Assembly: GCA_046563655.1 (NCBI GenBank)
Contig: CM102283.1
Location: forward strand, 1,302,001 to 1,366,000
Direction of reading: 5' to 3'
Source of the DNA: Yuukianura sp. NJ FZ-2021
Taxonomy: Eukaryota
DNA: 64,000 nt
How positions within the stretch are numbered: position 1 is the first letter of the stretch; every line of letters starts with the position of its first letter. The position numbers and the translations under genes are program-made. The notes under the pieces are model-generated. The model saw nothing but the letters and a program-made list of their open reading frames with translations, made no database searches and was not told where the DNA came from. Shown here one piece after another: positions 14,196-63,053 of this stretch.

Positions 14196-14690
14196 GCCGA
14201 CCTCTGGTTTACTACTGAGGAGAAAATTGCAAACTGAAAAGTTAAAACTACTGTGCTATTTTACCATTAAAATGCTTTTATTGAAAAATTGGCCTTGATC
14301 TTATTACCTTAAACTATTGTTTGCTTTTTCGTTCCAAATCTATTTAAAAAAATTTACATCGATTTAACAATAAAATACCACGCGTACATACATTTTGTGG
14401 TTTTAGAAGGAAAGTTTTGTAAAGAAGACAGCACAGTTCGTGTTTTTCGGCTTTTAGAATTCAAAAAAGTTAAACTTGTTTAAAATATTAAAGTTACCTC
14501 AATAGGCGTAGTGTCCTTGTGAAGTTTTTCTTTGCAATCATAAAAAAAATGAGGCGATGACATGGCAAGACTGGGATCAATAAGATGTGAAAAATTCAAT
14601 AACGCTGAGAACAGCTTTAACATATTTTTTTAACAGCGAAATGAATAGCTTGACTATCACGTAATTATTGTGTACTTTAAGCATCTGAAA

Positions 14691-15487
14691 CTACTTACAA
14701 TAAGCAATAAATGTAATGGCATTGTTCGCAATTGTGTTAATTATGATGGAAACATGTACGTACGTAATAATATACATATGACAAACTTCTACTCTACATT
14801 CACGAAGTGAGTTAAACGTTTTTCCCATGTAGATCCTTTTTGCTCTGTTACGCTCCCCGCTCCATGCAAAATGTTGGCGCCATTTGTAAATCCACTTTTG
14901 GGAATTGGCTCTTATGGCAGCCGCAGTGCCATAAAAGTTGAGCAGCCACAACAATGCTAACGTTGCAAATAGCACCAAACTCCCAGCGAGCACGGCCGAT
15001 TCGTCCAGAACGCTGAATCCATATGCCATTGTAACATTTACGACTAAATTCAGCGTCAGAATTGCAATGAGGTTGCGATGAGCGTCGTTGAATAGACCAA
15101 TCAGAAGACGGAGACGATTGAACCCCAATCGGTTAAAGTCAGTTTGTCCCAAAATGTGATTTGAAAGAGCCGTGTATGCCGTAACAAAAATTGAAATTTG
15201 AGCAAGTGCGGTGTAAACCTTGGCTCCTGAAATTGCAATAGCAACTACTGCTCCAATTTGACCAAAAGTTGCAGAAATTGTTACGACTTGTGGTGGAAAT
15301 ACTATAAAAGGAAGCACAAGTTTGTTCAAAATTTGGATGAGTAAGATAGAATCTTGATAGAATCTTCTTGATACATGATGTAGATCCCGGTAACAAAAAT
15401 AATTAGAGTTGTCGCCCAAATTCCATGAATCCAAATCATTTTTGATAAGTTCAATGTGAGGAGGGTTTTCCACAGATGTTTGGTGGC
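14691..15487 (-). pseudogene. Chemoreceptor pseudogene (cluster B copy 3): exon 2 only, frameshifted
   Basis: Homologous to exon 2 of copies 1 and 2; an 11-bp tandem duplication gatagaatctt (15345-15366) breaks the frame; no MELYY-type exon 1 before the PAQR3 3' end. Confidence 0.7.
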
Positions 15488-16104
15488 TGAAAATTTGTTA
15501 AAATGATAAAAATTGCGTAGTTAAGGCAATGCTATTATACATGTATTATGCATATATATAAGAGTCTTGTCACTAGAGATAATTTAAATGAAACTTGTAA
15601 AACTATAAAGTAGCTTCACTTCATGTATTTCACCCAAACTATCCCAACGAAGCTGCGTTATATTTCTCTGAAGTAGTATGTATTGTACTTTTAGTATAAT
15701 ATATATTATACATTTGCATACATATAATATACTTATATTGTATATACCTTTGAGCTGAAACTAAATACTACACTACGCTAGACAAAATCTAAGTTGGCCC
15801 AGTAAAATTCTTTCAAAAAATAAACTGGTTCTTGCCGGAATTCCACCTTACGAAATCAAAACTAAGTATTTTTTATATTAATAGTAACATAATCTAACAA
15901 CATAATTTATACACAGTTGAGTGAAATTGGGTGGAAGTATTTGGACTAACCTAGTCAGGGTCTAATCTAAACTAGATCTATTTCTTTCCTAAACTTTCTT
16001 TGAGTTAAATTGCGGTGTGTCAATGGTATTGCCGACAGTTTTGTGAGCATTTTTTAACATCGACTGAACGTGACTAAATTTGGCGCCAAATGTTTTGAGT
16101 ATTT

Positions 16105-20050: not shown

Positions 20051-20150
20051 NNNNNNNNNNNNNNNNNNNNNNNNNNNNNNNNNNNNNNNNNNNNNNNNNN
20101 NNNNNNNNNNNNNNNNNNNNNNNNNNNNNNNNNNNNNNNNNNNNNNNNNN
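20051..20150. other. Assembly gap (100 N)
   Basis: Run of N; identical 14-mer cagtaagtgtttat on both sides. Confidence 0.99.
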
Positions 20151-20688: not shown

Positions 20689-22448
20689 ATGGCTCGTAGT
20701 GTTTGTTCGATTTTCCTCGAAGTCATTTTGACAATTTTCTCCTTAGCAGTTTTTTGTGTTATTTTGCTCCCGCTCCTTCTCGTGCTCTTTGGATCATGTC
20801 ACGCGTGGAGACTGTTGCTGATTGCCTGGGTGAAATTATTTCCCAAAGGACGGATACGAATCATGGGAGGTCAGAATCCAGTGGTTGCCATTGACGACCT
20901 CCAGAGGCCGCTGTCCACACTTGTTGGCATGGGGGCCTTTGATGGACAATTTGACGTTTGACAGTGCCCTTGAGTACGTATCGGCAGTTGTCAACGCAAA
21001 GGACGCTTCAGGTCAACTCCTAAATCCAGAGTTCCATCAGTACTATGAAGAGTGGTTTGGATTCTTATGGTGGAAGTGGGAGGGAGAATTCAAACTTTCG
21101 GATCATGTCAAGTTATGGGACACTGGTGACAGGATATCTGAAGAGATGGATGTTATTAGCATCATTTCGTACCTGGAGAAGTTGGCATTTCCAAAAGCAA
21201 AAAGTCCATGGGAGGTCATTGTCCTCAGAAACGTCCATCTTTGCGGTGTCAAGGACGAGCAAGAGCCAAAGACGCTTATAATTTTTAGGTAACATTTCAA
21301 AAACACCGGGAAGATTTTCAAAAAAAAAAAATTAAGTTCAACAACAACTTTGAATTAAAATCCAGAAAACTTTAGTTGTGAATTTGTTTTGGACAGATTT
21401 CATCACGGGTTGGCCGATGGAATTGCGGTGATGCAGTTGTTTATGAAGTTTGTGTTTGACGATGAATTTGAAAAAGTCGCGCGTCCAAAATACATTGAAC
21501 GAGACAAATGTCAAGAAAAACTGCGTCGTTTGCTGGCGATTGTACAACTGCCGTATGAATTTTTCAAGCAGAGTATAACTGCGTACGATGTAAACGAGTG
21601 GCATTTGCCAGAGAGACAACTTAAGCGCCAAGTTTCAAAAGCCTGGACAAAACGTATTCCGATTGATGTCATCAAGCAGGTCAAGGTCGCTCATAACGTC
21701 GGGTTCACAGCCGTACTCATTTCGGCCATTTCCGGAGCTATTCGGGAAGTTATGATTGCAAACAAGGTTCAACTTCCAAGAAAAATTCACGCCATTCTTC
21801 CTCTTCCTTGGCCAGGGCACCCTAGAAAACTTTGCAATCACTGGTACAATCTCACCTCAATCTAAATTTAAACAAAATTAAACAATAATTAAATGTTTTT
21901 TATATGTAATCGTACTTATTTTATTTCTAATTATTTTAATAATTTATTATTTTGCTTAACTATTTAATCATAATTTTATTTTTCAACTTTTTAGGAGTTA
22001 TGGCTTCATAACGCTTCCAGTTGGAACTGAAAATAGACTGAAGAGACTAAAAAAGTGTGAGAAGTACGTGACACAACTCAAGAAGTCAGTAACCCCTGCC
22101 GTGAACTTTGCCATATTGAAGATGTTTAACAGCCTGCCGACTTGGGTAATTCGGAATATGACCTTGACCAACTACTTTCCCACGGTCATCTTGTCCAACT
22201 TCCCTGGACCCCCTCCAGGAACAAAAGGCGTCGGAGACTTCCCATTGGTCGACAGTTGCTTTACTGGTGGACCACTCCGCGGAAGCATTCCGATCAGTAT
22301 TACCATTCTCAGTTACGACGGATTTCTACGCATCGTCCTTGGCGTAGATGAAGCCATTTTCCCAAGGTATGAGATGACGACGCACATGATTCAAAACATT
22401 GAAAGTGAATTTCAACTGTTGAGCACCACACCGACGGACGTACCGTAA
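20689..22448 (+). CDS. Wax ester synthase/diacylglycerol O-acyltransferase (WS/DGAT)-like protein, with an apparent 1-nt frameshift at ~20950
   Basis: N-terminal TM; KSPWEV..., spliced R|FHHGLADG (HHxxxDG catalytic motif), LSNFPGP, ITILSYDG C-terminal motifs; 3 exons. Confidence 0.85.
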
Positions 22449-23047: not shown

Positions 23048-25551
23048 TTAAACGACCTGCCAGAGTGTTTCATACTTTATGTTTCGCACCAACGGTTGGA
23101 TTGCATGTGCAAGTGTTTTAATTGCAAAGTAGTAAGGAATCAGCACAGCTTCAGACGTTGCAGAAACGAGTCCCATCAAGAACCCAAGTGGCAGCACCAT
23201 AAAAATTAACCAGACTCTTGAATGCAGATTCAATTCTTTCGGGCCTTGATCCTGTCGTCCCCCCTTAATCCATGCCATTCTAAGCCTTAGTTTGTCATGC
23301 AAGTTTGTGAGGACATGAAAACGATTGCCCATTATGCCAGACTGAGTGAGTCGTTTTATATTGGATGTAAAGTCGTGCCAGCTATAGGAACTGCGTAGAT
23401 TGAAGCCAATCGCTACATCTTGTGCGAATATCGTCTCATCCAAAAAGTAATAGATTGACCGAGTAGAAGTGTTGTTTCCATGGGAAAGTTGTTCCAAATG
23501 ATCAAAGTAACTTTTGGCCACTGATTTATCCATGTAAATATGTTGAATAGAGAATTCTTTGCTACATCGTGCCATGTTTTCTTCATCAGTGACACCACAT
23601 GGTAGGAGTCGCATGTTTTGGAATAGGTTGTATGCGGATTTTTTAGCTTTGCCCATTTGCTTAAGTTTGTTCAATCCGATGCGCACGTAATCTGATACAA
23701 CTTCCGTTACGTCCGCTGGATCACGTACGAAATCTTTCAGTTGCCGTAGCAACACCTCTTGCATACTTGATTTAATATATTCTTTGCAAGTTTCTCCCTT
23801 TTTTAAACCCAGAATACGGTTTCTGTCGAGGATTCTGTCTTGGTATTCAGGTGGGCTACAACAATCAAAGATTGACAGAAGAATACCAACATAAGGAACA
23901 AAAACATAATTTTGCTCAATTGCTTCCGCCATTGAATGTAGTTCACGGCCAGGAAACGGTAGTGCAAGTGACGTAGTAACAATGCCCTTGTAACCATTTG
24001 TAAGCACCACAGCCATCAATAGAAATGTTGCAGTAAAGGCTTGAAGTCCCTTTCCACGCATGCCTGGAACGTTAGACAATGAGAAGCCGACTTCCAACAA
24101 GGTGAGGTATATAAATACAGGGACCTGTAGCGATACGGGCCTGTAGTGAGGGCATGCGGCGAAGAATACAAAAGACATAACAATTGAAATGCACAACCAG
24201 CACCATGCTTTCGTAGTAAATGGGCGAGTGTAGTCTTCCAATCCAAACCGAACACCGTCTCGGTAGCATGTGTATCCATACAAGCGCATTGTCTTGAGCG
24301 GAAACGACCTGAGGCGATGCAATTTATCTCCAGAAGTAAAGATATCATAGTACATTTCGATTGTCATATCTAAAACCATTCAAGAAAACAAATCAGATCA
24401 AATAAAAGTTATCTAGCTCAGTAATGATGAGTGCAATTAGTAGGGGTTAGCTTTCACTAAGGCGATAGTTATACTTATACAGCACTAAAAACTAATATCT
24501 GCAATTTAGATTGTTCCTGCCATGAAAAATTTGGTTTATTTTAATATGTGTCATTTGCCTGCTTGTTATAATAATTTTAGTTAAACTATAAGTACTGTAA
24601 ACGTTATTTTTACCTGCTCCTCTTGTACCAAGTGCAACGCTTTTGTTGAATGGAGCAACAAGGAATGCCTGTAGCGGAGGAAACATCAGCTTATGTTCTA
24701 ACCATTCCATTCTCATCAAACTTGACCCGGCAGCAACAGACAACGTTTTGTAAAATCGTCTTCTGAGGACTTCAAAGTCCAGAGACAGCGGTACTGACTT
24801 GTTGTCTAGAACTTCAAAATACAGTACACCCATCACGGGAGCGCCAACAAAGATTTTAAATTTGCTACTGCTGACTGGTACACCACAGTCTGTGTAAACT
24901 ACTCTCACAAGGATCCGACTGAAATATAGTTGTTGCCTTTCCTTTTCCTTCATCTCTGCAGTTAACTGCTTAACTTCCGCTTTATATCTGAGTCTGACTT
25001 TTTGGAATAACGCAGTAGTCTGTTATTACTTGAAGCTGAGGATCCTGTATCATGTAAGTTTGGAGAAGTACATCATGCCTCTCCCTATATATTAAACCAT
25101 TTGACCAATTCTTTATGTAAAACGGTCTGTGACGCCAGTAGTCATCCAAGTATCCAAAAATGTCAACTTCCTCGTAACCCGTTTGCGGGAAAATCGCTGT
25201 GACCCGAACGCAGTTGACGTTTTTTATATTATAGTGGGGGCTGTCTAAAACACAGAACGATGGACTTCTTGTTTCAGTGAAATTACTTGACACTGTCTTA
25301 GTGGCACATAAGCTCCTTTCCTCCCGCCGTGGTTTTGCCATTTTTCCATTTTGCGCCAATGTTAGCGCATGTGAACTGTAGATATTTGTGTACGTCGAGT
25401 ACATGATAACATGGTTGTAACAATTGGCCCAACTTCCGCCCAAATACAAATCCATGTCGAGGTCTCCAATGACAGCAGACTTCTTCTTTGCGGATTCCAC
25501 TGCACCAAACAGCACAACAAAAACGACGAATAAAATAAACTTTGCAGACAT
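23048..25551 (-). CDS. Divergent ionotropic receptor (IR)/iGluR-like chemoreceptor, apparent frameshift at ~25020
   Basis: Signal peptide MSAKFILFVVFVVLFGAVES; M1 RPFTTKAWCWL, pore-like TLLEVG, M3 VLTNGYKGIVTTSLALP, LTQSGI, final TM; intron ~24613-24372. Confidence 0.7.
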
Positions 25552-26959
25552 TTTCACAATTGTTTCAATTAAATTGTTTACTCCCGATAATTTTTGCGAA
25601 AAGAACTTTGTAGTAGTGAACGAATTTTGATGTACCTTGGTGTTAGATACTAGACAATCAACAGCATACTAAAGACGTCTTTGGGTAAAAAGTAGACAAT
25701 ATCTATTTAAAATTAATTATTATTAGCTAAAAAATTATTACTATTAAAGAAAGGCTGGCCAGCAGTGTAGGTATAGGGTAGTGGCGACATGCAAAGAATA
25801 CGAGAAATCGGTTAGGTAACCAACACTTCTTGATTACATTAAAGGCGGGAATTTTCAAAATTTTGCATTTAAAAAATTAACGTTTGGAGGTTTGTCTTCT
25901 TTGCATAAATAAGAATGACTCCAACTTGGAGCCACTTCAATAAGGCATAAACACGAAAGTCTAAAACAAATTAAGCGCAAAAAAAACCTTGGCTGACCTT
26001 GGCTGAAAAAATTAACACAAAATCTAAACTGATGAATTCAAACTACTAAAAAACAAGTATTTCTAACTATTTCAAACGCGACTTTTTTAAATTTTGAAAA
26101 ATTATGACACTCACTGAAACAAGTTTTGCACAAAGTAAAAAATTCTCGTCTTCTTAAGTTATATGCTTTGAGAAATGAAAAATTCTCACATTTTTGAACC
26201 AGACAGTGCCTCAGGAATTTAAGTTTCACCTTTGGTATTAAATTTAATAGTTTCGTGTTTCACTTCATTTTTGAAGTTCTTGAAGTATTGAATTCTAAAA
26301 ATAGGAGGCAAAAAATGAGAAATTGTGTTTTGAGCGTAAAGTCAAAATGTTTCTAGTCTTTGAAAAAATCACATCGAATTGTATCTAAATCCCAAATTTT
26401 GAAAACGCTTTTCTGTTAGGGTTCCACTTGAAGTATCGGACACTAGCCACAGTTTGTTTAAATTCTTGAACATTGGAAATACTTTTGGGACAATCTTACA
26501 TAATCATTTTACTGCAATCTCTTCGGACGTCTAGAATCTTGACCTTTACCATGTTAACAAGCAGTGTTCCGTCAAAAGCGCTTTTTGAAGTCGACGCTTT
26601 GCTTTTTGCTGGAAATATGCCATTTTTGCTGCTTTTGTTGCGTTTAACTTAAAAGGCAAAAAAAACATTTGCCTTCGTACCTCACAACACTGCTTTAAGA
26701 AGTAAACCTTATTTGGTACAATATCTGCCAGTTCTTTCAGTCTTAGACACTCCAAATCAAATTCAAGTTTTGCCGCAAAATATATAAAGTCACTGTTATT
26801 AACTGGCGAAGCATTCGCATTGGCTTACGTTTTATGCATTGGCATTGTCTGTTTGGCCGGCCGGCGTTTTCGGCAATTATCGCGAAAACGATTGAACATT
26901 TCCGGGCTCTGTTTTCACCGATGTACAGCTAGTGACACAATGATGTTCACTATTGAATA

Positions 26960-27290: not shown

Positions 27291-27742
27291 TTCGCAATTT
27301 ATTTACACCGATTTACAACCGTTTATTTTGCTTCAGGTTTTGAAGCTGTCGAAATCGCTACCAAATGTATTCCACCTTTACCGCATCACTTTCCCTCGGC
27401 ATGATTAAAACGGCACTACTACACTTGTATGGTGAATTACCGCAAACCAGCGACGTAATAATTAAAAGTAAGCTTTTGTTCTGGACTTAGTTCGTCTTGT
27501 CCTGAAAATCTTTTCATCTCAACGGATGATAGAAATTGGAAGAATTGTCAAATAAGAAAAAATGCTAAATAAAACCGAAACTTTGCTATGGCGTGAAACG
27601 GCACGTGTGGACAGGCGTCATTAATTACCCAATTTTAATTTGCTGATACAACTCTATTAGTTGCTTTGTGAATAACACTTCAATACACTTTCAGCATACA
27701 TTGGTGCTCGTTAGTGTGAGTGAGTTGGGCAAACAGTGCACA

Positions 27743-29215
27743 ATGCTGGGCAAAAAGTCGTTGAGAGCTTTTCAAAAAATTTTGAAAATTGCGTACGTTT
27801 TAAATTTAAACACCATGGTTGTCACTGGGAGTCAACGAAAAACAGATGCAAAGATAGAACTAATTGCGACTAATCCAGCAACTTCCATTTTGAGGAAATT
27901 TAAAATTTCGCGCCTCGGATTCAAGGTCATGATGATTCTGATTTTTGGAAATTTTATTTTTGGAGCAGCTCGGATCGTCCAGTCGATTGCCTTTCTAGAA
28001 AAACCTTTTCAAAATATTATGTTCCAAGTGTTTGTCCAGAGTGTCAATCTTGTTTCTTGTACAATGAATTATACAATGTTCGAAAGAATGGATGACTGGG
28101 CTTGGAACATTTCAGCCTTCTTGGACTTGGAGTACCGCTTGACTCGTAAAAAAATTCTGTCTTTAAGTTTGCGCTCGTGTAATTTGTTTTAAACATCACG
28201 GAGTGAATTAAACAAAGAACACTGATTTTTTTTTAGAAAGATATCAAATTCGACCTGTCGGAGACAGAGCGTTGAAGTATATAGTATTCTTTACGCTGTG
28301 TTGTTTTACCGAAATTCCCTCAATGATGATTTTGTATTTGGCAAATATGGACAAACCGGTGTATCTTGGATCTTTACGGTACTACATACCACCTGAGTAC
28401 GTAATGACCAACTACGTCGCGTTTGTCCTTTTCTTTGTCCATGAAGTTGTTATGTTCTTGGCTACCGTTTTCGGGTCACTCCTACTTTGCTACATGTACA
28501 TCATGCTCTTACAAGGCGGTCGTTTTTGGCTAGAGGAGCTGGGGTGAGTAAAAGTACTTGTACGGTAAAAACTAAACCTGATTTTTCCTTAATTCAGTAT
28601 CAGTTTCTAACAATTACAAAAAATCTTCATCAAAATCTTTTTATGTTCCGTTTGCTTCTTTTTTTTAGTCCATATCAACAGAACACTACCGGCGGAACAC
28701 CATCGACTTTGAAAAAATCCCATTCGACGCACAATGACTTACGAACATTTCCGATTACCTTGAACACTATCCACTGCTGGCAAATCCTGCTGACCTTCTA
28801 TGACAAATGCGCAAGAAGTGCCATCATTGGTCAACATATTTCCGTCCCTGCTGGACTCGTTACATGTACTTTTTCCACAATTAAATTCTGGGGATGGCAC
28901 AACTTTGAATCCATCCCGGCCGCCCTCTCATACCTCGTTTTTCCAGGGGGCATTGCCATCTTCTTCGCATGGATAGTTTTGATTCAGCCTCAAATTGCAG
29001 CGATCTATGTTACTTCCACTCGAATGAAAAACAGGCTATACACAACCTTAGAACGAGCGGAACCACAGGAGCGGGAATATCAACGTCGATGCATTCGGTC
29101 GCTGAGAGACATACGAGTGATGCTGGGCTCATTTTTCCATTACAAGACAACAACAATGCCACAAGTTCTGGACGAGTGCATTGACAGCACGATTGATCTT
29201 TTGGTGGCATCATAA
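27743..29215 (+). CDS. Divergent gustatory-receptor-like chemoreceptor, 3 exons (cluster C copy 1)
   Basis: MLGKKSLRAF...; GT-AG introns ~28146-28236 and ~28544-28668; C-terminal RSLRDIRVMLGSFFHY...STIDLLVAS. Confidence 0.75.
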
Positions 29216-29717
29216 CTTTACCGTATTTCTCCAAGTAGTAGACCAAAGTAAAACAACTCAACGCCTATTTTACGGTTGAATGTTATTGATATTTTTTGGG
29301 GATAAATGATTGTCGTCGTCGCATTATGTCTATGTGGATGTCTAATCAATTCATCATCTTTCCTCGAAATGATTTAAAATGGCATGGTTTCGGTTATCGT
29401 AACAGTGTTAATGGAATATTTAAGCTACTTTTTTTGTTCGATTTGCTTTTGAGATTTAGTCCATCGCTACGTCAAGGAAATCTCTTAATCTCAAAGGCAT
29501 GATGGAAATTGTAAAAATGGTTAAAAAAACTAATTAAAACCAAAACTTTGCTTAAGTATGAAACGAGACACATGGACAGGTTGTCAATTATTTAACTGAT
29601 TCAATTTTGATACGACATTACTGTATTAGTTGCGGTATGAATAACATCTTCATCAGCATTCCGAAATTTTGAACTGTATTATTCGTCAGTATTAGTGAGG
29701 TGGGCCAACAGTGAACA

Positions 29718-31258
29718 ATGTTGGGCAAAAGGTCGTTGAGGGCTTTTCGAAAAATTTTGAAAATTGCTAACTTTTTGCGCCTTAATACCATGGTTGTCAC
29801 TGGGAGTCGAGGAGAAACTGATGCGAAGATGGAATTAGTTGCAACGAATCCAACAACTTCGCTTTTGCGGAAATTTGAAATTTCGCGCCTCGGATTCAAG
29901 GTCATGATGGGTATGATTTTTGGAAATTTTATTTTCGGAGCAGTGCGGATCATCCAGTCGATCGCCTTTATGGACAAACCTTTTCAAAATATTATGTTTC
30001 AAGTGTTTGTCCAGAGTCTCAATCTTCTCTCATGTACAATCAATTATACAATGCTTGAGAGTATGGATGACTGGGCTTGGAACATCTCAGCATTCTTGGC
30101 CTTGGAGTATCGCTTGACGCGTAAAACAAATTTTTGGGTTTTGTTAAATTAAATTTTATCAATTTAGCGTGTGAACTAAATTTTTTCTTGAGATTTTGAG
30201 TAATTAACGTCTTTTCCCTCTCTCATAATTTTTTTAAACTTCATGCGCAAATTAATTTTAAACATTTTAGGAAGATATCAAATTCGACCAGTTGGCGACC
30301 GAGCCTTGAAGTATATAATATTCTTCACGGTTTGCTGTTTGGCCGAAATTCCTTCAATCATGATTTTATATTTGGCAAATATGGACAAACCTGTTTACCT
30401 CGGATCTTTACGGTATTATCTACCACTGGACTACGTGGTTACCAACTACTTCGCTTTTGTCGTTTTCTTTGTCCATGAACTTCTCATGTTATTGGGTACG
30501 GTTTGTGGGACACTCGTACTTTGCTACATGTATATTATGCTCTTACAAAGCGGTCGTTTCTGGCTAGAGGAACTTGGGTGAGTAAAAGTGCTTTTACGGT
30601 AAAATTAAAAAAAATTTTTTTTTAAATTTAAACCTTTAACATTAATCTTCATTTAAAAATCTTTTTCAAAATATTGATAGTACCATTTGCTATTTCTCTT
30701 ACTTTATTTAGTCCACATCGACACAAAACTACTAACCGAACACCGTCGACTTTGAAAAAATCTCATTCGACGCATAGTGACTTACGGACATTTCCGATTG
30801 CCTTGAACACTATTCACTCCTGGCAAATCCTGTTGACCTTCTACGACAAATGCGCAAGAAGCGCCATCATTGGTCAACATTTTGCCGTCCCTGCTGGACT
30901 CGTTACTTGTACTTTTTCCACAATTAAATTCTGGGGTTGGCACAACTTTGAATCCATCCCGGCCGCCCTCTCTTACCTCGTGTTTCCAGGAGGAACTGCT
31001 ATCTTCATTACCTGGATTGCTCTGGTTCAGCCTCAAATGGCAGCGATCTATGTCACTTCTACTCGCATGAAAAACAGGCTGTATACGAATTTAGAACGGG
31101 CGGAGCCACGGGAACGAGAATACCAACGACGCTGCATTCGGTCGCTGAGAAACATTCGCGTGGTGCTGGGCTCATTTTTCCATTACCAGACAACAACAAT
31201 GCCACAAGTTCTGGACGAGTGCGTTGACAACACGATCGATCTTCTGGTGGCATCTTAA
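29718..31258 (+). CDS. Gustatory-receptor-like chemoreceptor (cluster C copy 2), recent tandem duplicate
   Basis: Highly similar to copy 1 in all three exons and in ~80 bp of 3' flank. Confidence 0.75.
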
Positions 31259-31362: not shown

Positions 31363-32504
31363 TTAGCTAGAATTAATCGATTTTTCCATGAGAGGTTCCT
31401 GTGAAGAGTCGGGAACTGGAGTAGTTGTGGTGATCGGTACCTCCGGAGTAGTGGTGACAGGTACCTCAGTTGTGGAGACGGATACATCAGTAGTAGTAAT
31501 GGGTACTTCAGTTGTAGTAGTCGTAAGCTCTGTCGTAGTGGTGGGTACCTCAGCAGTAGTAGTGATGGGTATCTCAGTTGTAGTGGTGGGTACCTCAGTA
31601 GTGGTAGTGATGGGTATCTCAGCTGTAGTGGTGGGTACCTCAGTAGTGGTAGTGGTGGGTATCTCAGTTGTAGTGGTGGGTACCTCGGTAGTGGTAATGA
31701 TGGGTATCTCAGCTGTAGTGGTGGGTACCTCAGTAGTGGTAGTGATGGGTATCTCAGTTGTAGTGGTGGGTACCTCAGTAGTGGTAGTGATGGGTATCTC
31801 AGTTGTAGTGGTGGGTACCTCAGTAGTGGTAGTGGTGGGTACCTCAGTAGTGGTAGTGGTGGGTATCTCAGTTGTAGTGGTGGGTACCTCAGTAGTGGTA
31901 GTGGTGGGTATCTCAGTTGTAGTGGTGGGTACCTCAGTAGTGGTAGTGGTGGGTATCTCAGTTGTAGTGGTGGATACCTCAGTAGTGGTAGTGATGGGTA
32001 TCTCAGTTGTAGTGGTTGGTACCTCTGTAGTGGTAGTGGTAGTTATCTCAGTTGTAGTGGTGGGTACCGTAGTGGTGGGTACCGCAGTGGTGGTGGTGGG
32101 TTGCTGAGTGGTGGCAGCAGTTGTTGTGGGTTTGACAGTTGTCGTCGTCACGTTGTGTGGATCCACCGGCGTTGGTTGCATTGCTACAAGCGTACAAAGA
32201 AAAGCCTTAAATTTTTCAAAAATCTGGTTTTTGAAATACAGAATTCCAAAATTCTGTCTTACAATGAGCAATTACGGTAGCCACAATTGCACAAACGGCA
32301 GCCACTGCTACCACTGCTCCCACAATCTTGGCAATCCGAATCCACTTGTCCCGCGAAGCAGGAGGTTCACTTCCGGGCAAAAGACGTTCTAAAATCACAA
32401 AATAAGGTTAAAATTTTTACTATTTCCAAAGTGAAGAAATAAAAAATTTCAACTTTCAATGCGTAAAATGCATTCGGTGTTGCTTTACCTTGATCTGAAT
32501 TCAT
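31363..32504 (-). CDS. Type II membrane mucin-like protein with Thr-rich TTTTEVP/TTTTEIP repeats, 3 exons
   Basis: MNSDQ|ERLLPGSEPPASRDKWIRIAKIVGAVVAVAAVCAIVATVIAH| (signal anchor) spliced in phase to the 31363-32183 repeat exon. Confidence 0.8.
31490..32097. repeat. Coding tandem repeat of alternating 21/24-bp units
   Basis: gggtatctcagttgtagtggt / gggtacctcagtagtggtagtggt repeated >20 times. Confidence 0.95.
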
Positions 32505-39949: not shown

Positions 39950-42866
39950 CTACTTTTTTAAATGTAGTTGAGCTGCACAAGATTCTTTGAGTTTGGAAAT
40001 TCCTGCACTTCTATTGGACGCGTACTTTTGTTCCCAGGCGTCGAGAAGAAGGTTGTGGTAATGCGGCTGTTGAAAATATTTCAAGTAGCGATGACTCGTT
40101 GTCGAAGGAAATATTCTTACAAATCCATCGCACTATTAATTTTAACAAAAATCATATTTCAATATTATTCAAAAATTAATGCATTTTTAGCTTATATCAT
40201 TATACCAGGCTTAGTTTAAGCATACTTTAATTGAAGAGTAATTAACAGTATACCTGTGTCAGCTCATCTTCTGCAGTAATTAGCTCCCGTAAGTCATCTC
40301 CAGTTAAATTTTTCAAAATGTGTTGCCGGTACTACAAACAGCATCAAGCACAATAGAAAACGGATACACCAATATAGAACAAAATAAAAATTCGCGTTTC
40401 TACGTACCGACAATTCTGCCAAATTTTTGGTTAAAAAGGCATGCTTCCGTTTAGTATGTAAACTGTTTTTGACTGTGTACAAGTTGCCATCAAATGTAGT
40501 TTTCACCAAAGTTACGTTCTCTCCCAACCGTTCCCTTATGACTCCCTAATTCAAAAAAAAAAAAATACTCACATTTAAAAAAGCAAGAAAACGACTTTTT
40601 TGCCATTTAAAGTGTAACGTTGATTCAACCTGGGCAGATTTTGATAGTGATGGTGGAAAGTGGTAGCCGGCAATATTCAAGTACTCTGTAACTAGTTTTC
40701 CTTTTAAATCTTTCAGAAACCCAGAGTCAGTTCCCATTCCTGTAAATATGTACAATTACTGTATAACCGAGCATACTTAAACTATGAATATAACAACCGC
40801 ATTGAGCTGAACATAATCGAAAAAACGAATATCAGTATACCTGGTGAAACGTTGACCTCGAAGAGCCATGGTCGAAGTTTATTGTCCATGCCGATATCAA
40901 AACCGTACAACTGATACGAATTATAGCGATTTTGGGCCTCCGAAGCATATTTTGTCATTGAACTCTCGACCGAAATCAACGTCTTGAGAATCACGTCTTC
41001 AATCTTGTTTTTGATTGGTTCTGTAGCGACCCCTCTGTCTTCCAAGTAGCGCCAAAATGTTTGAACGGACCTTAAAATATATTTCCATCAACTATTTGAT
41101 TTGAAATAAAATATAGTATGATATATCTAATCAATAGCGAATTAGTATTATAGGTTATATAATCTTTAAGGATTTTAGCCTTCATATGAGATTAATGAGA
41201 TTAATTATAATGATAATAATAATAATAATAATAATAACAATAATAATAATAATAATAAAATCCACCTCCGAGTACATAAATCCAATACTCAGCTCCACAT
41301 ATGCAAAGCGGTTTTTCAGAAAATCGTTACATGTCGAAATGGGAAATTGTCATTTTTTGGCGGTTTCAGTTGAGCTGAAACGAATCATCTCCCTATTAAG
41401 AATTGAAACTGTGACATTGCACTGTTAAGTAAATGGGACAGATCAGCAACAAAATCCGCTGTTATATGCCTCGGTCTATACTATACTCAACAGCACTTAT
41501 GCTGAGCGGTTTTTCAGAAAATCGTTACAAGTGGATGTGGGAAATGAAATAAAATTGTCATTGTTTGGCGGTTTCAGTTGTGCTGAAACGACACGACAAA
41601 TCTATGTATAAATATGTTCCAAGTTACTTACCACTGAAGCCCTGTCGTTCCATTTAAACTCTCATTCTTTACGTAGCGACGACTTCGTTTGTTGATGGCG
41701 CGATTTGTCAAGTGGATTTGTCTCTTGTTGGCTTTGTCACTTTTAGCGGAGTATTTTGAAACAGCAAATCGAACAAATCCGTCTTTGTAGAAATACGCCC
41801 TAATAGTAAATATAATGAAATTTAAAAAAAACGTAAGTCTTTAAAAAAATCAGACTTTTTTTGAATTACGTACCTCAAAGGTCTGAAGCTTGTGACAAGT
41901 GCATAAAGACGGAGATCAAATTTTCTGTTTTGAACGAGCAGAGGCCGAATGTATTCCTGAACAACCCAACTTCTGTTACTAGATTTAATTTGACTCCAAT
42001 TTGTAATCACACGAACCCCAGCACCATTCGCCTTGTTTGTCTGTAACGTTAGTAACAAAAAAATTATAATGTGTATTAGAATACATTATTATAAAATTAG
42101 TTACATAGTATTCGCCCATACCGGTTTGCTAACCCACAAGCATTTGCCTGAGTCACACTTCTTTGCCGTCCACACCGCTTTCAGTCTTTCTTTGTCTCCG
42201 GGAAGCAAAAACGTACGAGGAACAAAGTCGTAGGTTCGAATCCCATGACGCAAAATTGACATATTCAAATTGAGCCACAACAATGCTTTGTTATCCAACT
42301 CACGAGCACCTAATTTCATTTTTAAATTAGCATTTATATATTTAGTTATCCAAATCAATAGCTAATTAACTCTGTAATTAACTAAACCAAAGGCAAACGA
42401 CTGCATTTACAAACAAACCTGGCAAATAATTAAGTTTTTGATGCCTTTCGACTGTGCTGAACAACGCTTTGCCCCATGGAACATTGTAGTTTGAGTCAAC
42501 TAATGTAAATCCTAAATCCAAACAAAATGCTAGACAACTTTTTAAAATTTAAAAAAAGTTTTTTCAAAAATTTGAATTACCTGAACTTTTCAGAGTGTTT
42601 TGAACAATTTTGCTCCTGACTCGTTCCTTTCTCCAAGTCAAATGTTTTCTCACTTCCCTCGGCCATGGCGGTGAAATAGATTCGTTGTGAAGCACAAATT
42701 TGTAGTATGGAGGGACATTTGGAAACAATGATGCTCTGACCCCTGATAAGTTTGTGACCTCCTTAGCAGTTTTGAGTTGGAGGTCAATGCCATTGGCTTC
42801 TTCGGGTAACGCGTGACCTTGAAGTAGGCTGACACTCAGCAGCAACAACGGCAGTTTCATTTTCAT
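39950..42866 (-). CDS. TTLL4-like tubulin polyglutamylase-family ATP-grasp ligase, copy A, with N-terminal signal-peptide-like leader
   Basis: [67 protein letters not shown] motifs over ~10 exons. Confidence 0.9.
41213..41258. repeat. (AAT)n microsatellite, intronic
   Basis: About 15 AAT units with one AAC interruption. Confidence 0.95.
41308..41590. repeat. Imperfect ~80-bp direct repeat x2 in TTLL copy A intron
   Basis: gcggtttttcagaaaatcgttac...tttggcggtttcagttg.gctgaaacga at ~41308-41384 and ~41507-41591. Confidence 0.8.
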
Positions 42867-43179
42867 GGAAAAAGTGACTGAATTGAGCACTAAGTGAAGT
42901 TTTCTACTGCGCGGCGAAAAACAAACGTTAAGCAACTGGCTTCATCCACTACTTCATTTATTTAACTATTATTAATAGTCTTAGCACAGTTGTTATTTAT
43001 GCATGTAAATTTAGTATAACTAATTCCAAAAATGTTGTTAGCAGGAAAGTAGTACTCCAGGAGTAAGTTTTGTGTCGACGTAAAAAAAAATACAAAAAAT
43101 GGCAAAGATGAAATCATTGGCACTGCTCGTTCCCTTCAACAGAATATATTTAATAGATCTTTGTTTCTGTTATTTAGTT

Positions 43180-46008
43180 TTACCTTTGTTTATTTTTATA
43201 ATGTCGAAGATGTAATTTTGCAGCACATGCTGTTTTGAGTCGTTCAATCCCTTCAGTCCTGTTGGCTCCGTATTTCTGTTCCCAAGCGTCTAACAGCAAA
43301 TTGTAGTAATGCGGTTCTGCAAAATACTTCAAGTAGCTGTGACTCAATGCCGATGGAAAAATCCTGACAAATCCATCGCACTAAAATTATATTGAATAGA
43401 TATTATATAACTAAATCCATAAATAATAAACTTAACAATATTTATAATTATAGGATACCTGTGTTAGTTCATCTTCTGCCGTAATGAGTTGGCGTACATC
43501 ATCCGCAGTTAAGTTTGTAAGGATCAGCTCCTGCATTGTCTAAATAAAATTTAATTTACTCATAAAAGTATAACGTTTTAAAATTTTACATCCAAGGTTC
43601 CTTGACAACTGAAGTGTAATTCCTACAACAGGTTGTTCAATGACTCAGAGTTTCCAAAAATACTTCAAACAAATTTCATTCCATTTCCATTTCCAAACCA
43701 ACCCCATTTACATTAGATGCAAAAAATTACCATAGAAAGGCAGCTTTGGTATTTTCAAACTAATTTTAATACCTTCCAGATATTGGACAACCTGGTGAAG
43801 AAATTTTTTTTTGTTGACGAACCTTGGTTAGTTCGGAGCTTGACCAAAAGTTGTCAATAACCGTCTGGTGCTTTTTCTTTGTTTCGATGCCTGTGTTAGC
43901 AAAGTACAGTTTGGAGTTAAAGGTCACTGACCTCGGAACGACATCGCCCTGACTCCGAAGTCGTTTCACGATGGACCCCTAGCAACAGATTAACTTTCCA
44001 AAACTGTCGAAAACTTATGAAAATTTGAAAAAAATTTGTGTTTTTTTCAGTTACTTGAGCGGAACGTGGAATTGACGCTGGAAAATGGTAACCGGCAATA
44101 TTGAAATACTCCGCCACGAGTTTTCCTTTTAAATCTTTCAGGAGTCCAGAGTCCATTCCCATCCCTGAGCGTGAAATTGAAATATTTTAAAAGAACGTGA
44201 AAAAATGTTCCAAGACCTCTAGTACATTTTGGGAAATTTTCATAACTCACCTGGTGAAATGTTCACTTCGAATAACCATGGCTTAAGGGCGTGGTCAATT
44301 CCAATATCAAATCCATATAACTGGTAAGAGTTGTAACGGTTATGAGTTTGAGAAGCGTGAGCGAGGATCGAACCTTCCACCGAAATTAGCGTTTTTATTA
44401 TAACGGCTTGGATTTGCTGCTGGATTTGAGTTGTGTTTACGCCTCTTGCATCCAGATAGCGCCAGAGTGCCTGAACCGACCTTTCACGCAAACATACACT
44501 TTACTAATACTAATATAATATACTATTATTTTATTGCTATATAAGTTTCTAAATTTACCATTGACTACCACTGCTTCCATGCAAACTGTCGTTCTTTACG
44601 TAATTTTTACTTTTCTTGTTTATCGCACGATTAGTCAGGTGCATTGTGGCGACTCTTGCTTTTTTCGTGTCGTTGGAAAACTTTGTGACTGCGAAACGCA
44701 CAAACCCATCCTTGTAATAATACGCCCTAGAATATTATATAGGTATACTAATTACACTTTAATATATTATTTTAGAACTATTTCTATTATTACTACTATT
44801 TTAATAAGTTACCTTAGTGGACGATAACTAGTTACGAAAACATAGAGTCTGAGATCAAACTTTCTTTTCTGAACCAACAGTGGCGAGATATACTGTTGCA
44901 CAACAAGCAATTTTGCATTGGCCAATTCCATTTGTATTTGTCGCCATTTTGTTACCACTTGAACTCCTGCGCCATTGGCTCTATGTGGCTGTAGAATCAG
45001 AATGGAACATCGTATTTAATATTTATAGAGTCAAATTAAATAATTTAGAAGAAATAGTACTTACAGGTTTTATTATCCACAAACAGCTACCTGAGTCACA
45101 GTTGTTGGTATTCCAAGCGTGTTTGAGCTGTGCAATGTCGTCGGGTAGAAGAAATGTTTGTGGAACAAAATCATACTCTCCCGCTCCAGTTCCGTGTCGT
45201 GAAATAGACGATTTCAAATTCATCCAAAGCTTGGCCTTGTTTGCTATCTGTCTCGAACCTATAATTTAATACTATATTGTATATTGTTTTGTGTTTTATT
45301 GTATTTTATTAGATTGTCTATAATCATATTGTATTTAGTTATATTGCATTTATTTAAAAAAAAACATTATAATAACTAAACTTCATTGTACCCGAAAAGT
45401 ACTGAAAATAGTACCTGGTATCTGATTAATTTTTTGACGTGGTTCCACAATTATGTTGACTTTTACGGATTTATCCCAGGGAAAGTTCCAATGTTTCCTT
45501 ACGAGTCGAAAACCTGCAAAAAAAAAAGTTTTTACTTTTCACTTTTATTTAGTTTATGAACGACGCATTTTAAAACAGTTAGGAAATATACTATAAACCA
45601 ATGTAAATCTTATTATATTACCTGAGCTTTTAATTGTGTTTCTAATGAGGTTGTTATTAACTGAATCTTTACGCCAAGTCAAATGTTGTTGAATCTCTGA
45701 TGGCCAAGGTTCCGTTGATTCATTGTGGCAAACAAATTTGTAGTATGGTGGAACATTTGGAAACAGAGATGCCCTCACGGCTGAACTTTTGGCAGTCTGT
45801 GACCTTTGACCTTGTGCAGCCTCATTGTTTCTAAACCTAAACATTTTTTAACTGGAGGATTTTGACATGTTGAATTAAATCAAGAAATACTTCCTTACAA
45901 TTTTTGCCGTTCGCTTCCGCTTTTCTTCCTGACTTTTTTAGTGCCATGTCCAGGAAAGGAAAGCCCTTGCCAGAGACATAAGATTAGTAGCACAAAAACA
46001 AATTTCAT
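43180..46008 (-). CDS. TTLL4-like ligase, copy B (tandem paralogue), with N-terminal signal-peptide-like leader
   Basis: Exon 1 MKFVFVLLILCLWQGLSFPGHGTKK..(46008-45899) splices in phase to [16 protein letters not shown]; same catalytic motifs incl. HLTN, YGFDI, FEVNISP. Confidence 0.88.
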
Positions 46009-46583: not shown

Positions 46584-47974
46584 TCATTTTTGAAAACACA
46601 AAAGATCGATGACATTTGCTATAATGACGTCCTTCATTACAGACGGGAATGTGCTTTTTTGAATGACGGTAGAATCTGAAATGTGGACGCGGACTGCACG
46701 CAGACTCTTGAGTGACATGGTATCCAGGCTCGATAATTTGTATCTTCGCGCCGTTATCAGAATTTTACGAAAATTGATCGAGCATTCGTAAACTTCCGCG
46801 GCCGAATCCATGATGTCGTTTATCAATTTGAGGAATCCCGCCGCTAAGCCAACGGCCACAACCGTCGTTGCCACACCGCATTCCGGCGCACAGTAAATTG
46901 TGCAGAATAGCATTGCGATGATACATGAATATCCAACTGTCAGTTCCGCACAAAACCAGTGGCGCCACTCGGTGTTGAACTGTTGAACTATTAGTTGTAC
47001 CATTTGGTACAACCGCATTTACGACAAACTGTCACAGTTCTCTCTATAAATGTCCAGAAAATTCTCCCTCTCAAGAAATTCTAAAATGTCAAGAATTATA
47101 ATGCAAAATATTTTGAAAAATGTAAAAATTACGTGCTAGTGGTTGTCGCTAGGATCTTTTGAGCTACATGGAGCGACATGACCACTGGTATTATGTTGAA
47201 GATGAAAATGAATTCGAAGGCCACCCAAACCATCACAACTGCAACAAATCCACCCGCGAAAATAAAGTAAAAGTCTCCGAAGATTTGTACGGCGACCAAT
47301 TTAATGATCTTGAACGCATGTGTTTCCAGCTCAAGATGGACGAGCATGCCAAGTGGGATACATGGAATTGTCAAGATCATGAGTACCAGGAACACTGCAA
47401 CGGAATTTCCTGTGTCACTTTTCAATTTTGATTGCGGAGAAATTTGTCCTGTTGGAATATTTTTTATTACAATTTTGTGAGGGTTCGCATCGCATCAGTA
47501 TAAAATCTTTCTACCGAAATACCTATGTTTTAGATAGCTAATTCTTCTATAAATGCTAAAATCTTAGGAATCGGTTGTAACTAAACGCAAGTAATACTTA
47601 CGCAGTTCTTGAGCCAGTTCGAGTATTTTCTTCATAAAATCAACGTTGGCTGCGGCGTCGAAGAAAACTTGGAGTTGGAATAATATACATTCCGTGATCC
47701 AAGTGCACATCACAAAAGTGACAATTCGTTCCTCAGCAGGGATATTTGGTGTCAAGAGGTCATAAACCAGCGCAACAATGATGACCAGCAAATGGATCAA
47801 TACCGAAGCTGCGATGATAACCTTGAACAAGCACTTGTTCGAACCGTCTAGACCGGCTTTGACGACCTCATCACCTGAAGCAGTTTTAGAATAAGCGAAA
47901 TAGTACGGTACCACTCCGTAGCGATGGCCGAGATTAATAAAGCCAAAAATTAACGATAGTTGTCCGAAATTCAT
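46584..47974 (-). pseudogene. Gustatory-receptor-like chemoreceptor, probably pseudogenic
   Basis: 3 exons, C-terminal KSLRAVRVHIS..IIANVIDLL; in-frame TAA at 47019-47021 in exon 3, and exon 2 donor phase does not match the obvious acceptor. Confidence 0.6.
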
Positions 47975-49750
47975 GTTTCAGCGGTTTCAGTATCGTAGCA
48001 GTAGAATTCAGTTGGCGTTTTTTATGAGATGTCAACTGAATTTAAAAACAAAGATTAACATTAATTTAGGTCTAATTACTCTACGAGGCCAATTTATGGA
48101 ATGATGTAGCAAAGAAAACTTGTCTCATTATTAGAAGGCAAGGAAAAAAGGAACTTTTTGTCTTTGCTATTTTTTGCCTATTAAATATTACAGTTTTCAA
48201 AGCAGCAGATATAAAAAGAACTTAAAACTTTAGTTCTCTGAATGATTCAATGAGCTATTCTTTCATTTGACGTCAAATATGAGAACATAGCAGTCTAAAG
48301 TTTGAGGTGAGCCTTTAAAATAAACTTTTCTAAACGGTGAATGTAAGCTGAAGTAGTTAATTTGATGCGGGCTCATTATTTTCAACCTTTGACACAGCCA
48401 AAATTTGACTAACCCAACAACGCCATTGTAGTGACCTTATCGAACGGCTTGAATCATGAAATAACATGGTAGTTTTTCCACATGAAAAAATTCTTTGGTT
48501 AGCTCAATAATGATTTGTCAAAAATTCAAAAAACTGTGAATTATTTAGTACATGGATTTAAATAATCCTCGTATAGATAGTTACTAGCGTTTTTTCCCGT
48601 CCAGGACGACTTTAGCAGAACCCATAATATGTTCTGCAAAAAAATAAATTTTTTGAAGGTTACCCGACCTATAACATAACGTATACCTGACTAAACACTC
48701 CATTGAGAGTCTAATTGCAAACCGAAATATAGAGCGAAATATAGAATATAAATATAGATTCTATATTTGTATTTTATATTTTGAATTACGAAATATTGCA
48801 CAATTTACACGAAGAAAAATACAAATATTAATATGAATATCAAACTCGTGAGTCCTGATAAAACCAGAAGAAAAAAAAATATCACCCTAATTTTTCCAAT
48901 TCGAATCAAAATTTGGGGGATGATAATCCCCTACGGATATCTCGAACCCCCCAAATCATCAGCAATATCTAAAATTTCTTGATGAAATCTACCGAAGTCT
49001 CAGATATACCTAAAATTTCTATTTGATTAAATCTATCTTAAATTTTTTTGACTTGGCGTCTGTTCAAAAATCATGGAACGTTTGACCTTGCAATCCGAGA
49101 ATTTGTCCCACTTGGACCCCATGTTTGGCCAGTATTTGAAATGACTTCCTTTCGAAAATTTTACACAAGTTTCTATACGTCTTCATCTAGTTATCCTGAA
49201 AATTTCATTGGTGAAACATTTCAAGTACACCCATTTCTGCCAGGCCCAAAACACGTCGATAATCGAAACCCTCCTTTCAAATAAAAAACGTCCTTATTTA
49301 AAACAGAAAAGGAATCAATTTTGAAAAATAATATGGAATGTTTGATTCAAAAGTGTGCTGTTTATAGTTGAGCACATAAAGAACATAAATCAGGAAGAAG
49401 AGAAGAGAAAGTTTGCTACACTTTCTTCTGAAAGTCTCGAATTCCGAGAAAACACGACTACTCGCGTCTCGGCAACTCTTTCACTTTCTCGCAAATTTTT
49501 TGGCGCTGTTCGTCTGTGTTTTCTTTTCATCTGCATCCTGATGATTATAAGTTCCGAAGAAAGTGTGGTTCTGCACGGTGGTTTTCGCCCCATTGGGCTC
49601 CACACTTTGCAAAATCAATTTCCGCTCTCTCAAATCATACTTAATTCAAATGAAACTCATGTGATTCATAACTTATAACCTAATTTTAAAGTGAAATTTA
49701 TCCAGAATTTTTGAATAATTTTGAAAAGTGAAAGTGAAAGCGGGGACTTC

Positions 49751-61440: not shown

Positions 61441-61682
61441 GTTCAAAACGATCCACAATTTTCTGAATAACAAGAAAATTTTCCACCGTTTGTCCACAAG
61501 CACTTCTACCTAAATTAAGTTTTTCCAAAACCTATCACAACATGCTGTTCCGGCTCCTACAATTTGAGTTTTCAAAAACAAAACAATTAAGACGAAAAGG
61601 TTAGGTTATTTCTGAAGTTTTGACTTTTTGACACGACTTGAGTTTGAACAGTTTTGCAACAATTTGGTTAAACAGAACCAGA

Positions 61683-63053
61683 ATGAATTCAGAGAAAGTA
61701 ACCCGCTTTGTCATTAGCCTGTTCATGGCTTACGGCTGCACGTTGCAAATTTTTCCATATCGCTGGAACGCCGCAAAATTTCAACTCTACAAAGCATCTC
61801 GGCTGCAGAACTGGGCGTTCAATTTCCATTCTGCTTGCATGTTTTTCTACTTTTCATTTATTACGTTTCGGCTAATTTCAACAATTGGTGACAAAATGCC
61901 GATCCTCGTTCGGCTCATTATGATTGTCTGGGTTGTCGCTTATGGCCTTACGAGCTCCTCAACGATCCAATTCTACAAACGTCGAGAGGAAATCATGTTT
62001 TTTGCAAATGCATTGTTCACAGCCAAGGTTAAAGGTCAACAAAGCTTAAGCCAAAATGTGGCTGCGGATGGTAAAACCTGAAAAATTAAAAACATTTTGT
62101 TTCAAACTTTCATATTTCGAAAAAACAACAAGTATTTCTAGAGTGTTAAGAATGAGATGTTTACAGTGGGGGCTTCACCATCTTGGATGGAACCATTATG
62201 GAGCTCGGCGTTAATTTGCGTGAGTTCACTGATGTTGTACACAAGTGGTCCTGCGCATGCAATCGTTCTATTCACTGGACCGTGCAATCCAACATACATC
62301 AGTTCAGTGATTCTCAATTGCTCGTCATATTTTGACAAGCCGCTGTCGACGCTGGAAGCAACTCCATACGTTTTTTACGAATATTACATAATTGGATTTG
62401 TATTGGCCGTTTGGAGCTTCAATTGGACTTTCCTCTTCATGGGCTGGTGCTGGATCATACGCATTATGGAACGCACGCTTTCGCAACTCCTTTTGTATCA
62501 GTCTCAAAAAATGAAGAAATTTTTAAAAAATTTAGTATTTTGGTATTTGTTCTTATAAATTCTACGTATACATAGGAATCAAAGCAGAATGTTCTTGGTG
62601 GCAGCGGAATTGGAGTACAGACACTGTCAAGTTCTGTCGGTACTTTTGAATGACGGTTTTCGATTTTTCATACGGATGTTTCCATCTGTTTTGTTCACAA
62701 TGGCTGGATTGATGCTGTTTGCTACAGTTCGCTACGCCTCGGTGCTACCGTTCCATCTATACGTTGTTTTCCCTTCGTGTGGTCTGCGATGTCTGTACGA
62801 AGCGACAACAGCACTGGCTGCAGCGGGCATGATGCATCAGCAGAGTGTCGCGTATTTGGCGACATTTGGAAAACAAATTCAGCATAGCAACGGAGGGTTT
62901 GAGCGGAAATGTCACAGGGCGTTTCACAAGTCGTGTCGACCATTGCTCTGCAAGGCAGGATCCATGTACACTTTTGAAAATTCAATTGTGTTGGTCTGTC
63001 TGTTCAACTGTACGCAGTTGACATTCAACATGTTGGTGACCTATAAAAAATAG
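61683..63053 (+). CDS. Divergent gustatory/odorant-receptor-like chemoreceptor, 3 exons
   Basis: MNSEKVTRF..FPYRWN; multi-TM; C-terminal KSCRPLLCKAGSMYTFE..TQLTFNMLVTY. Confidence 0.75.

Follow-up and report, generated by a model that had tools for sequence, protein, structure and literature searches.

Two adjacent genes, here called A and B, lie on the minus strand of a 64,000-nucleotide (nt) stretch of the Yuukianura sp. NJ FZ-2021 genome (assembly GCA_046563655.1, contig CM102283.1, positions 1,302,001 to 1,366,000; hereafter the window) and encode TTL-family ligases of the TTLL4 type, each beginning with a short hydrophobic leader. A and B are real, TTLL4-derived, constrained genes and old tandem duplicates, while the proposal that their leaders are signal peptides is held here with about as much confidence as doubt. 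The two gene models were assembled from coordinates, and DNA alignment of the two halves of the locus gave conserved blocks split by unalignable stretches bounded by GT and AG. Given in window coordinates, the models are as follows:

39950–42866, minus strand: gene A, 10 exons, 546 amino acids, single terminal stop
42866–42581, 42511–42419, 42309–42122, 42040–41874, 41799–41632, minus strand: exons 1–5 of A
41070–40841, 40739–40630, 40545–40408, 40331–40254, 40132–39950 (including the stop), minus strand: exons 6–10 of A
43180–46008, minus strand: gene B, 11 exons, 579 amino acids, single terminal stop
46008–45899, 45836–45622, 45513–45415, 45258–45065, 44988–44813, 44726–44559, minus strand: exons 1–6 of B
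44480–44251, 44164–44055, 43978–43823, 43539–43459, 43380–43180 (including the stop), minus strand: exons 7–11 of B
45837–45898, minus strand: intron 1 of B, present in B only, 62 nt, phase 2, parting the leader exon from the core

All 19 introns have GT-AG borders (those of A measure 69–561 nt), and the nine introns of A correspond to introns 2–10 of B in both position and phase. The leader exon of B (46008–45899), which a first-pass annotation of this DNA had described as splicing in phase, indeed joins exon 2 (start 45836) in frame through a strong GTAAG donor and the 62-nt phase-2 intron. No third copy of A or B was found in the window by tblastn, which returns just these two loci. Note that exon 2 of B has a second in-frame acceptor 6 nt downstream (45830; the pair stands at 45830–45838), which would give proteins two residues apart. 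Intron 5 of A (41071–41631) is 561 nt long compared with 78 nt in B, and it looks like a repeat insertion, since it holds two similar copies of an element of about 100 nt together with an ATT/AAT microsatellite.

At the protein level, 328 of 542 aligned residues are identical between A and B (60.5%). Synonymous differences are saturated (pS 0.77) with a dN of 0.31, and where dS is computable, omega is 0.13–0.19 for core regions and 0.45 for the linker that follows the leader. The intron sequences of the two genes can no longer be aligned. Both copies are clearly under purifying selection, and this constraint, combined with saturated synonymous sites, indicates that A and B are functional genes that have been retained over a long time.

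Membership of the TTL family, which the first-pass annotation had also recognized, relies on the Pfam TTL model PF03133, matched by exon pieces with E-values down to 1.2e-18. Of ten exon pieces, seven from core exons were tested, and five of these match PF03133, four above the cut-off (47–68 bits) and one below it (17.5 compared with 20.1 bits). The motifs CDSGxC, HNES, HLTN, GFD and ExN occur in both copies, as described earlier. The closest solved structures for the core exons are those of the glutamylases TTLL6, TTLL7 and TTLL11, with TTL scoring lower; the best solved matches of three exon pieces are TTLL6 and TTLL7 cores (6VZQ, 6VZT, 8U3Z and 4YLR; E-values 1.7e-10, 7.4e-07 and 1.5e-03). 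Exon 1 of A retrieved no TTL-family chain from the PDB, even at E-values up to 10, and two short exon pieces gave no match in the same database. In the ESM Atlas, exon 1 of A reached scores of 0.76 to unrelated clusters only, and the catalytic exon led to generic TTL clusters.

The TTLL4 assignment comes from the N-domain. When exon 1 of A was compared by HMMER with 1.84 billion representative sequences, 13 matches were obtained (35–44 bits), all of them fragments of 89–242 amino acids that carry the TTLL4-type N-domain motif and align only to residues 26–95 of A; two of the seven match clusters looked up bear the source name ‘tubulin polyglutamylase TTLL4’. Two of these fragments end exactly at intron sites of A and B (following Ser-Gly in the N-domain and Lys-Pro in the ATP-lysine strand), which suggests shared intron sites and a descent by duplication from an intron-bearing TTLL4-type gene. 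Another fragment (P0008) begins with a hydrophobic stretch, which was set aside as a leader because it is probably intron-derived, a long acidic region following it as in canonical forms. The word-based protein search with exon 1 of A, which covered longer proteins, scored none of 167 candidates, and the same search with the catalytic exon gave six matches, five of which were examined (P0001–P0005; two are named by their source as the ciliates Climacostomum and Stentor) and are 44–50% identical. Since nothing close to A or B was retrieved although the database clearly contains arthropod proteomes, the pair may be restricted to a poorly sampled lineage.

A metagenome scan with the catalytic-exon profile found nothing, and the scan with the N-domain profile found one locus, L001 (1–1981), a transcript-like contig that encodes a TTLL4-like protein of 634 amino acids nearly devoid of N-terminal extension. 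It shares with A and B the N-terminal motif, a C-terminal block (46% identity over 81 amino acids) and a core that is about 30% identical, and it differs from them by its net acidic charge and by a long acidic insert that precedes the C-terminal block. Autonomous TTLL glutamylases carry a cationic microtubule-binding domain after the core; in A and B, a stretch of similar length separates the core from the C-terminal block.

Hydrophobic leaders and the space upstream of them

The two start codons (42866 and 46008) and the two leaders reported by the first-pass annotation are present in the sequence. The features at the ends of the genes are the following:

42810–42866, minus strand: leader of A, 19 codons, with two Lys, an uncharged hydrophobic core of 11 residues, Gly at −3 and Ala at −1
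45958–46008, minus strand: leader of B, 17 codons, with one Lys, a hydrophobic core of 11 residues, Gly at −3 and Ser at −1
42907–42921, minus strand: acceptor-like pyrimidine tract and CAG, 40 nt upstream of the ATG of A; an exon would begin at 42906
43149–43154, minus strand: ATTAAA, about 26 nt past the stop of B, a consensus match and likely poly(A) signal
39915, minus strand: ATTAAA, about 35 nt past the stop of A, a consensus match

A cleavable signal peptide has, at the true N-terminus, a basic n-region, an uncharged hydrophobic core of 7–15 residues and, at positions −3 and −1, small residues. Both proteins passed a crude three-region rule of our own, as do 9% of the ATG-started frames in the window. 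The maximum hydropathy over nine residues is 2.8 in the leader of A and 3.7 in that of B, each being the most hydrophobic stretch of its own protein, and no other segment resembling a membrane span was found by hydropathy in either of them. The two leaders share a Gln-Gly ... Pro pattern and are placed close to the catalytic domain, as had been noticed earlier: 45 residues precede the conserved SLFPNVPP motif at the core start in A and 59 in B, and the predicted cleavage points lie 26 and 42 amino acids before it, respectively. In A, the residues that follow the leader are acidic (Glu-Glu and Asp), and in B a Lys/Arg cluster starts six residues past the leader, with about seven Lys/Arg within 20 residues.

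No long TTLL4-type N-terminal extension is present in the models of A and B, and there is little room for one. The gap between the stop of B and the ATG of A measures 313 nt, and that from the upstream multi-pass membrane gene (last-exon stop at 46584) to the ATG of B measures 575 nt; no minus-strand stop-to-stop frame longer than 65 amino acids occurs in either of them, and gaps of this size cannot encode a long N-terminus. In addition, an in-frame stop lies 25 codons upstream of the ATG of A (42942–42944). A and B look like separate transcription units because an ATTAAA stands just past each stop, and the one at 43149–43154 would likely end the B transcript before the start of A. The short N-terminus had been presented as unusual; the gaps uphold the exclusion of a long extension, but the feature is not unique to this pair, since the reading frame of L001 starts 13 residues before the motif, so that a short N-terminus is nothing special in itself.

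Up to residue 142, A has in-frame ATGs only at codons 1 and 3, and the hydrophobic core lies downstream of both. Translation from exon 1 of A must therefore include the leader, given that the protein is constrained from residue 45 onward.

Cellular site of action

Our preferred reading, which in our judgement is as apt to be right as wrong, is that A and B are TTLL4-type ATP-grasp ligases that lack the long N-terminal extension, carry in its place a gained cleavable signal peptide, and would be lumenal or secreted. On this reading, the old tandem duplicates of a TTLL4-type ligase would have lost the extension and acquired the leader, and their products would enter the endoplasmic reticulum (ER) co-translationally, with cleavage predicted to follow Ala19 of A and Ser17 of B. 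A basic, cysteine-poor and probably N-glycosylated enzyme would then act in the ER/Golgi lumen or after secretion. Start-codon use, cleavage, lumenal location and substrates are all predictions from the DNA. The composition of the proteins is consistent with such exposure: the mature forms of A and B contain four and five cysteines (0.76% and 0.89%) compared with 1.7–2.7% in six leaderless relatives, and they have 11 and 7 N-x-S/T sequons, respectively, versus about 4.5 expected. The leaderless relatives have 1–9 sequons versus 3.5–6.3 expected, and only P0005 (9 versus 5.1) is clearly above. Five sequons are common to A and B, one of which falls within a catalytic motif and is therefore uninformative.

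Several observations weigh against a secretory destination. The cysteine and sequon statistics are weak indicators of it, and one of the four cysteines common to A and B also occurs in TTLL6 and P0002. The first-pass annotation had asked whether signal-bearing TTLLs recur in related species, and none is seen among the sequences retrieved here: the leader is aligned in none of the 13 N-domain matches, P0001–P0005 are leaderless, and the reading frame of L001 has an in-frame stop upstream and no leader. To our knowledge, TTLL substrates are cytosolic. The remaining objections concern the start of the two genes and the charges around the leaders, and they lead to two other explanations.

First, the 5′ ends may be mis-modelled, in which case A and B would be ordinary cytosolic TTLL4-like ligases with a short N-terminus, their hydrophobic stretches being untranslated or internal, and all that would be left is a pair of short TTLL4-like genes, ordinary and lineage-specific. 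This we consider unlikely, though it deserves more weight than the other alternatives. An ATG at about 45844, within intron 1 of B, is in frame with exon 2 and could serve B as a start without leader if the intron is retained or if transcription begins downstream. The acceptor-like site at 42907–42921, which lies between the in-frame stop and the ATG of A, could be the acceptor of an intron in the 5′ untranslated region or the entry point of an upstream coding exon. L001 is an example of a protein that has no leader and whose N-terminus is very short. Moreover, AT-rich sequence often yields hydrophobic frames: in this AT-rich window, 35 of the 391 ATG-started open frames of at least 40 codons pass the crude rule (9%), as do 10 of 109 first-ATG open reading frames (ORFs) of at least 60 amino acids, so that one leader alone would be unremarkable. 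Two leaders at homologous positions, each at the first usable ATG, in paralogues with saturated synonymous sites and unalignable introns, are nevertheless beyond chance. Indeed, the ATG, the leader and the Gln-Gly ... Pro pattern were kept in both copies through this divergence, and the leader exon of B has its strong GTAAG donor and in-frame joining. Nor does A possess any alternative ATG between its hydrophobic core and residue 142, and among the 40 in-frame combinations of ATG, donor and acceptor in the 313-nt gap, the best 15 lengthen the frame by no more than 32 codons, through weak donors (at most 2/6).

Second, the hydrophobic start may be an uncleaved N-terminal anchor that keeps the catalytic domain at the cytosolic face of the ER or Golgi, where the enzymes would modify tubulin or cytosolic proteins near membranes; microsomal P450s have such an uncleaved N-terminal anchor. 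We regard this as rather improbable, a little more so than faulty 5′ ends. In its favour, a Pro/Gly turn and then the dense Lys/Arg cluster come after the leader of B. Under the positive-inside rule, basic residues favour the cytosolic side, and the cluster would thus argue against simple translocation and for a cytosolic C-terminal side. Both proteins are in addition very basic (86 Lys and Arg versus 47 Asp and Glu in A, 82 versus 42 in B), as expected of binders of acidic tubulin tails, and the cytosol is rich in ATP and free glutamate. However, the charges of A are reversed: two Lys precede the core, and Glu-Glu and Asp follow it, a pattern that predicts translocation of the C-terminal part. 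The uncharged cores comprise just 11 residues, short for a membrane span, and small residues stand at −3 and −1 in both proteins, while the low cysteine content and the excess of sequons fit lumenal exposure.

As regards known systems, the described TTL-family enzymes all act, as far as we know, in the cytosol, cilia or nucleus, and a search of the full-text literature found no description of a TTL-family enzyme with a signal peptide or in the secretory pathway. The enzymes that modify proteins inside this pathway include secretory kinases such as FAM20C and the vitamin-K-dependent gamma-carboxylase. Cnidarian nematocysts contain very high amounts of poly-gamma-glutamate, attributed to a bacterial-type synthase (10.64898/2026.08.23.746573). 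In these three cases, post-ER compartments host chemistry that uses ATP or is directed at glutamate, which sets a precedent, but the folds and families are unrelated to those of A and B.

Catalytic pocket and donor amino acid

Residues are numbered after TTLL6, through an alignment of P0002 with the TTLL6 chain (native number equals chain index plus 50) and an alignment of P0002 with A and B. The positions K125, K174, R219, R241, D346, E359, N361 and K377 are unchanged in both copies, so that the ATP/Mg ligands of the TTLL6 and TTLL7 cores, among which we take K174 to be one, align with those of A and B, and the second donor-lysine position (K377) is Lys390 in A and Lys410 in B. The roles of the other ATP/Mg ligand residues of TTLL6 are those given in the TTLL6 study (10.1101/2020.06.07.139295). 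The substrate pocket differs at the following positions:

41634–41636, minus strand: Gln300 of A, at the position of TTLL6 K283 (the donor-glutamate lysine)
44561–44563, minus strand: Gln320 of B, at the K283 position
42026–42028, minus strand: Asn194 of A, at the position of TTLL6 Q180
44974–44976, minus strand: Asn211 of B, at the Q180 position
TTLL6 C179 position: Ala in A, Ala in B
TTLL6 R182 position: Ala in A, Ala in B
TTLL6 H362 position: Val in A, Ile in B

According to the same study, K283 and K377 hold the donor glutamate by its gamma-carboxylate, are invariant in all TTLL glutamylases and are each essential in TTLL6, the K283A change dropping its activity to background, and Gln at the Q180 position marks elongases and Arg marks initiases (10.1101/2020.06.07.139295). 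Of the two donor lysines, A and B thus keep that of K377 and have Gln for that of K283, although the latter is conserved in the five relatives aligned, in TTLL6 and in L001 (for which the translation was read). With respect to initiases, the Arg at the Q180 position is absent, and an aliphatic residue at the H362 position and a TTLL4-type N-domain are present. TTLL4 itself has Ala, Arg and Ile at positions 179, 180 and 362 according to this source (10.1101/2020.06.07.139295), and A and B resemble it by their Ala at the C179 position and Val or Ile at the H362 position. They depart from TTLL4 by Asn for the initiase Arg, by Gln for K283, by Asn-Lys-Ala around K125, where Arg-Lys-Asp is usual, and by the hydrophobic leader in place of the long extension. 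From TTLL6 and TTLL7, which are cytosolic microtubule enzymes, they differ in the substrate-pocket residues. Overall, the site looks like that of a TTLL4-type enzyme in which the switch residue went from Arg to Asn and one donor Lys to Gln, identically in the two copies. Note that the Q180 position is Cys in P0002 and also, from its translation, in L001, and the Arg/Gln rule may therefore fail outside the enzymes studied.

ATP-dependent ligation is likely retained in A and B, judging from the residues kept. The explanation of A and B as decaying or dead pseudo-enzymes, whose ligase activity the loss of the K283-type Lys would abolish as does K283A in TTLL6 (10.1101/2020.06.07.139295), is very improbable, since the ORFs are intact over 10 and 11 exons, the ATP/Mg ligands and the second donor Lys are all kept, purifying selection is clear, and Gln may still be able to hydrogen-bond. 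The first-pass annotation had named the two proteins glutamylases; the ATP/Mg catalytic residues are kept, but the name itself is not secure with the K283 position occupied by Gln and the Q180 position by Asn, so that the label should be dropped for now. Of the two lysines that hold the donor carboxylate, one is Gln in A and B alike, so that an amino acid other than glutamate may be the donor, and with Asn as the acceptor switch residue, the linkage type cannot be assumed to be that of a glutamylase.

Under the signal-peptide reading, the enzymes would draw on ATP and Mg to attach an amino acid to carboxyls of acidic stretches in secretory proteins or peptides. It is conceivable, though we put this somewhat below even, that A and B are the first TTL-family ligases found to work in the secretory pathway or outside the cell, where this arthropod pair would add amino acids, maybe not glutamate, to acidic stretches. 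If true, a lumenal or secreted member of the family would bring secreted proteins within the reach of marks made by amino-acid ligation, such as polyglutamylation, and point to new substrates. In addition, donor and acceptor pocket positions have changed alike in two anciently diverged copies, which therefore provide a natural test of the published TTLL rules on which amino acid is added and where.

Surrounding genes

The window consists of eukaryotic DNA with about 36% G+C, in which no Rfam match was found. Besides A and B, it holds genes for a carboxylesterase, a WS/DGAT-type acyltransferase, an aldo-keto reductase, a cysteine dioxygenase and a PXA-PX protein, a mucin-like repeat gene, and several tandem arrays of unclassified multi-pass membrane genes. 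An assembly gap (100 N) at 20051–20150 lies beside the WS/DGAT-type gene (20834–22448). The cysteine dioxygenase exon is 79–80% identical to springtail and hemipteran proteins, and the named matches are mostly from insects and crustaceans, which points to a probable arthropod and not a cnidarian source. A role in cnidarian nematocyst poly-glutamate was dropped for this reason, the best matches of that exon, at 79–80% identity, being from springtails and insects.

The arrays of multi-pass membrane genes stand at 3734–8203, 9960–15497, 27647–31258, 46584–47977 and 61632–63053, are without Pfam match, and consist of pairs or triplets that are 52–82% identical; they may represent lineage-specific chemoreceptor-like families. 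The gene that adjoins B upstream is 25–33% identical to the pair in 3734–8203 (genes 3734–5257 and 6641–8203). On the minus strand, 31363–32271 is a long open frame with Thr-rich, mucin-like tandem repeats, the opposite strand being also open there. An ORF at 24982–25668, minus strand, shows a signal-peptide-like start as in B, with Met, a hydrophobic stretch and then several Lys.

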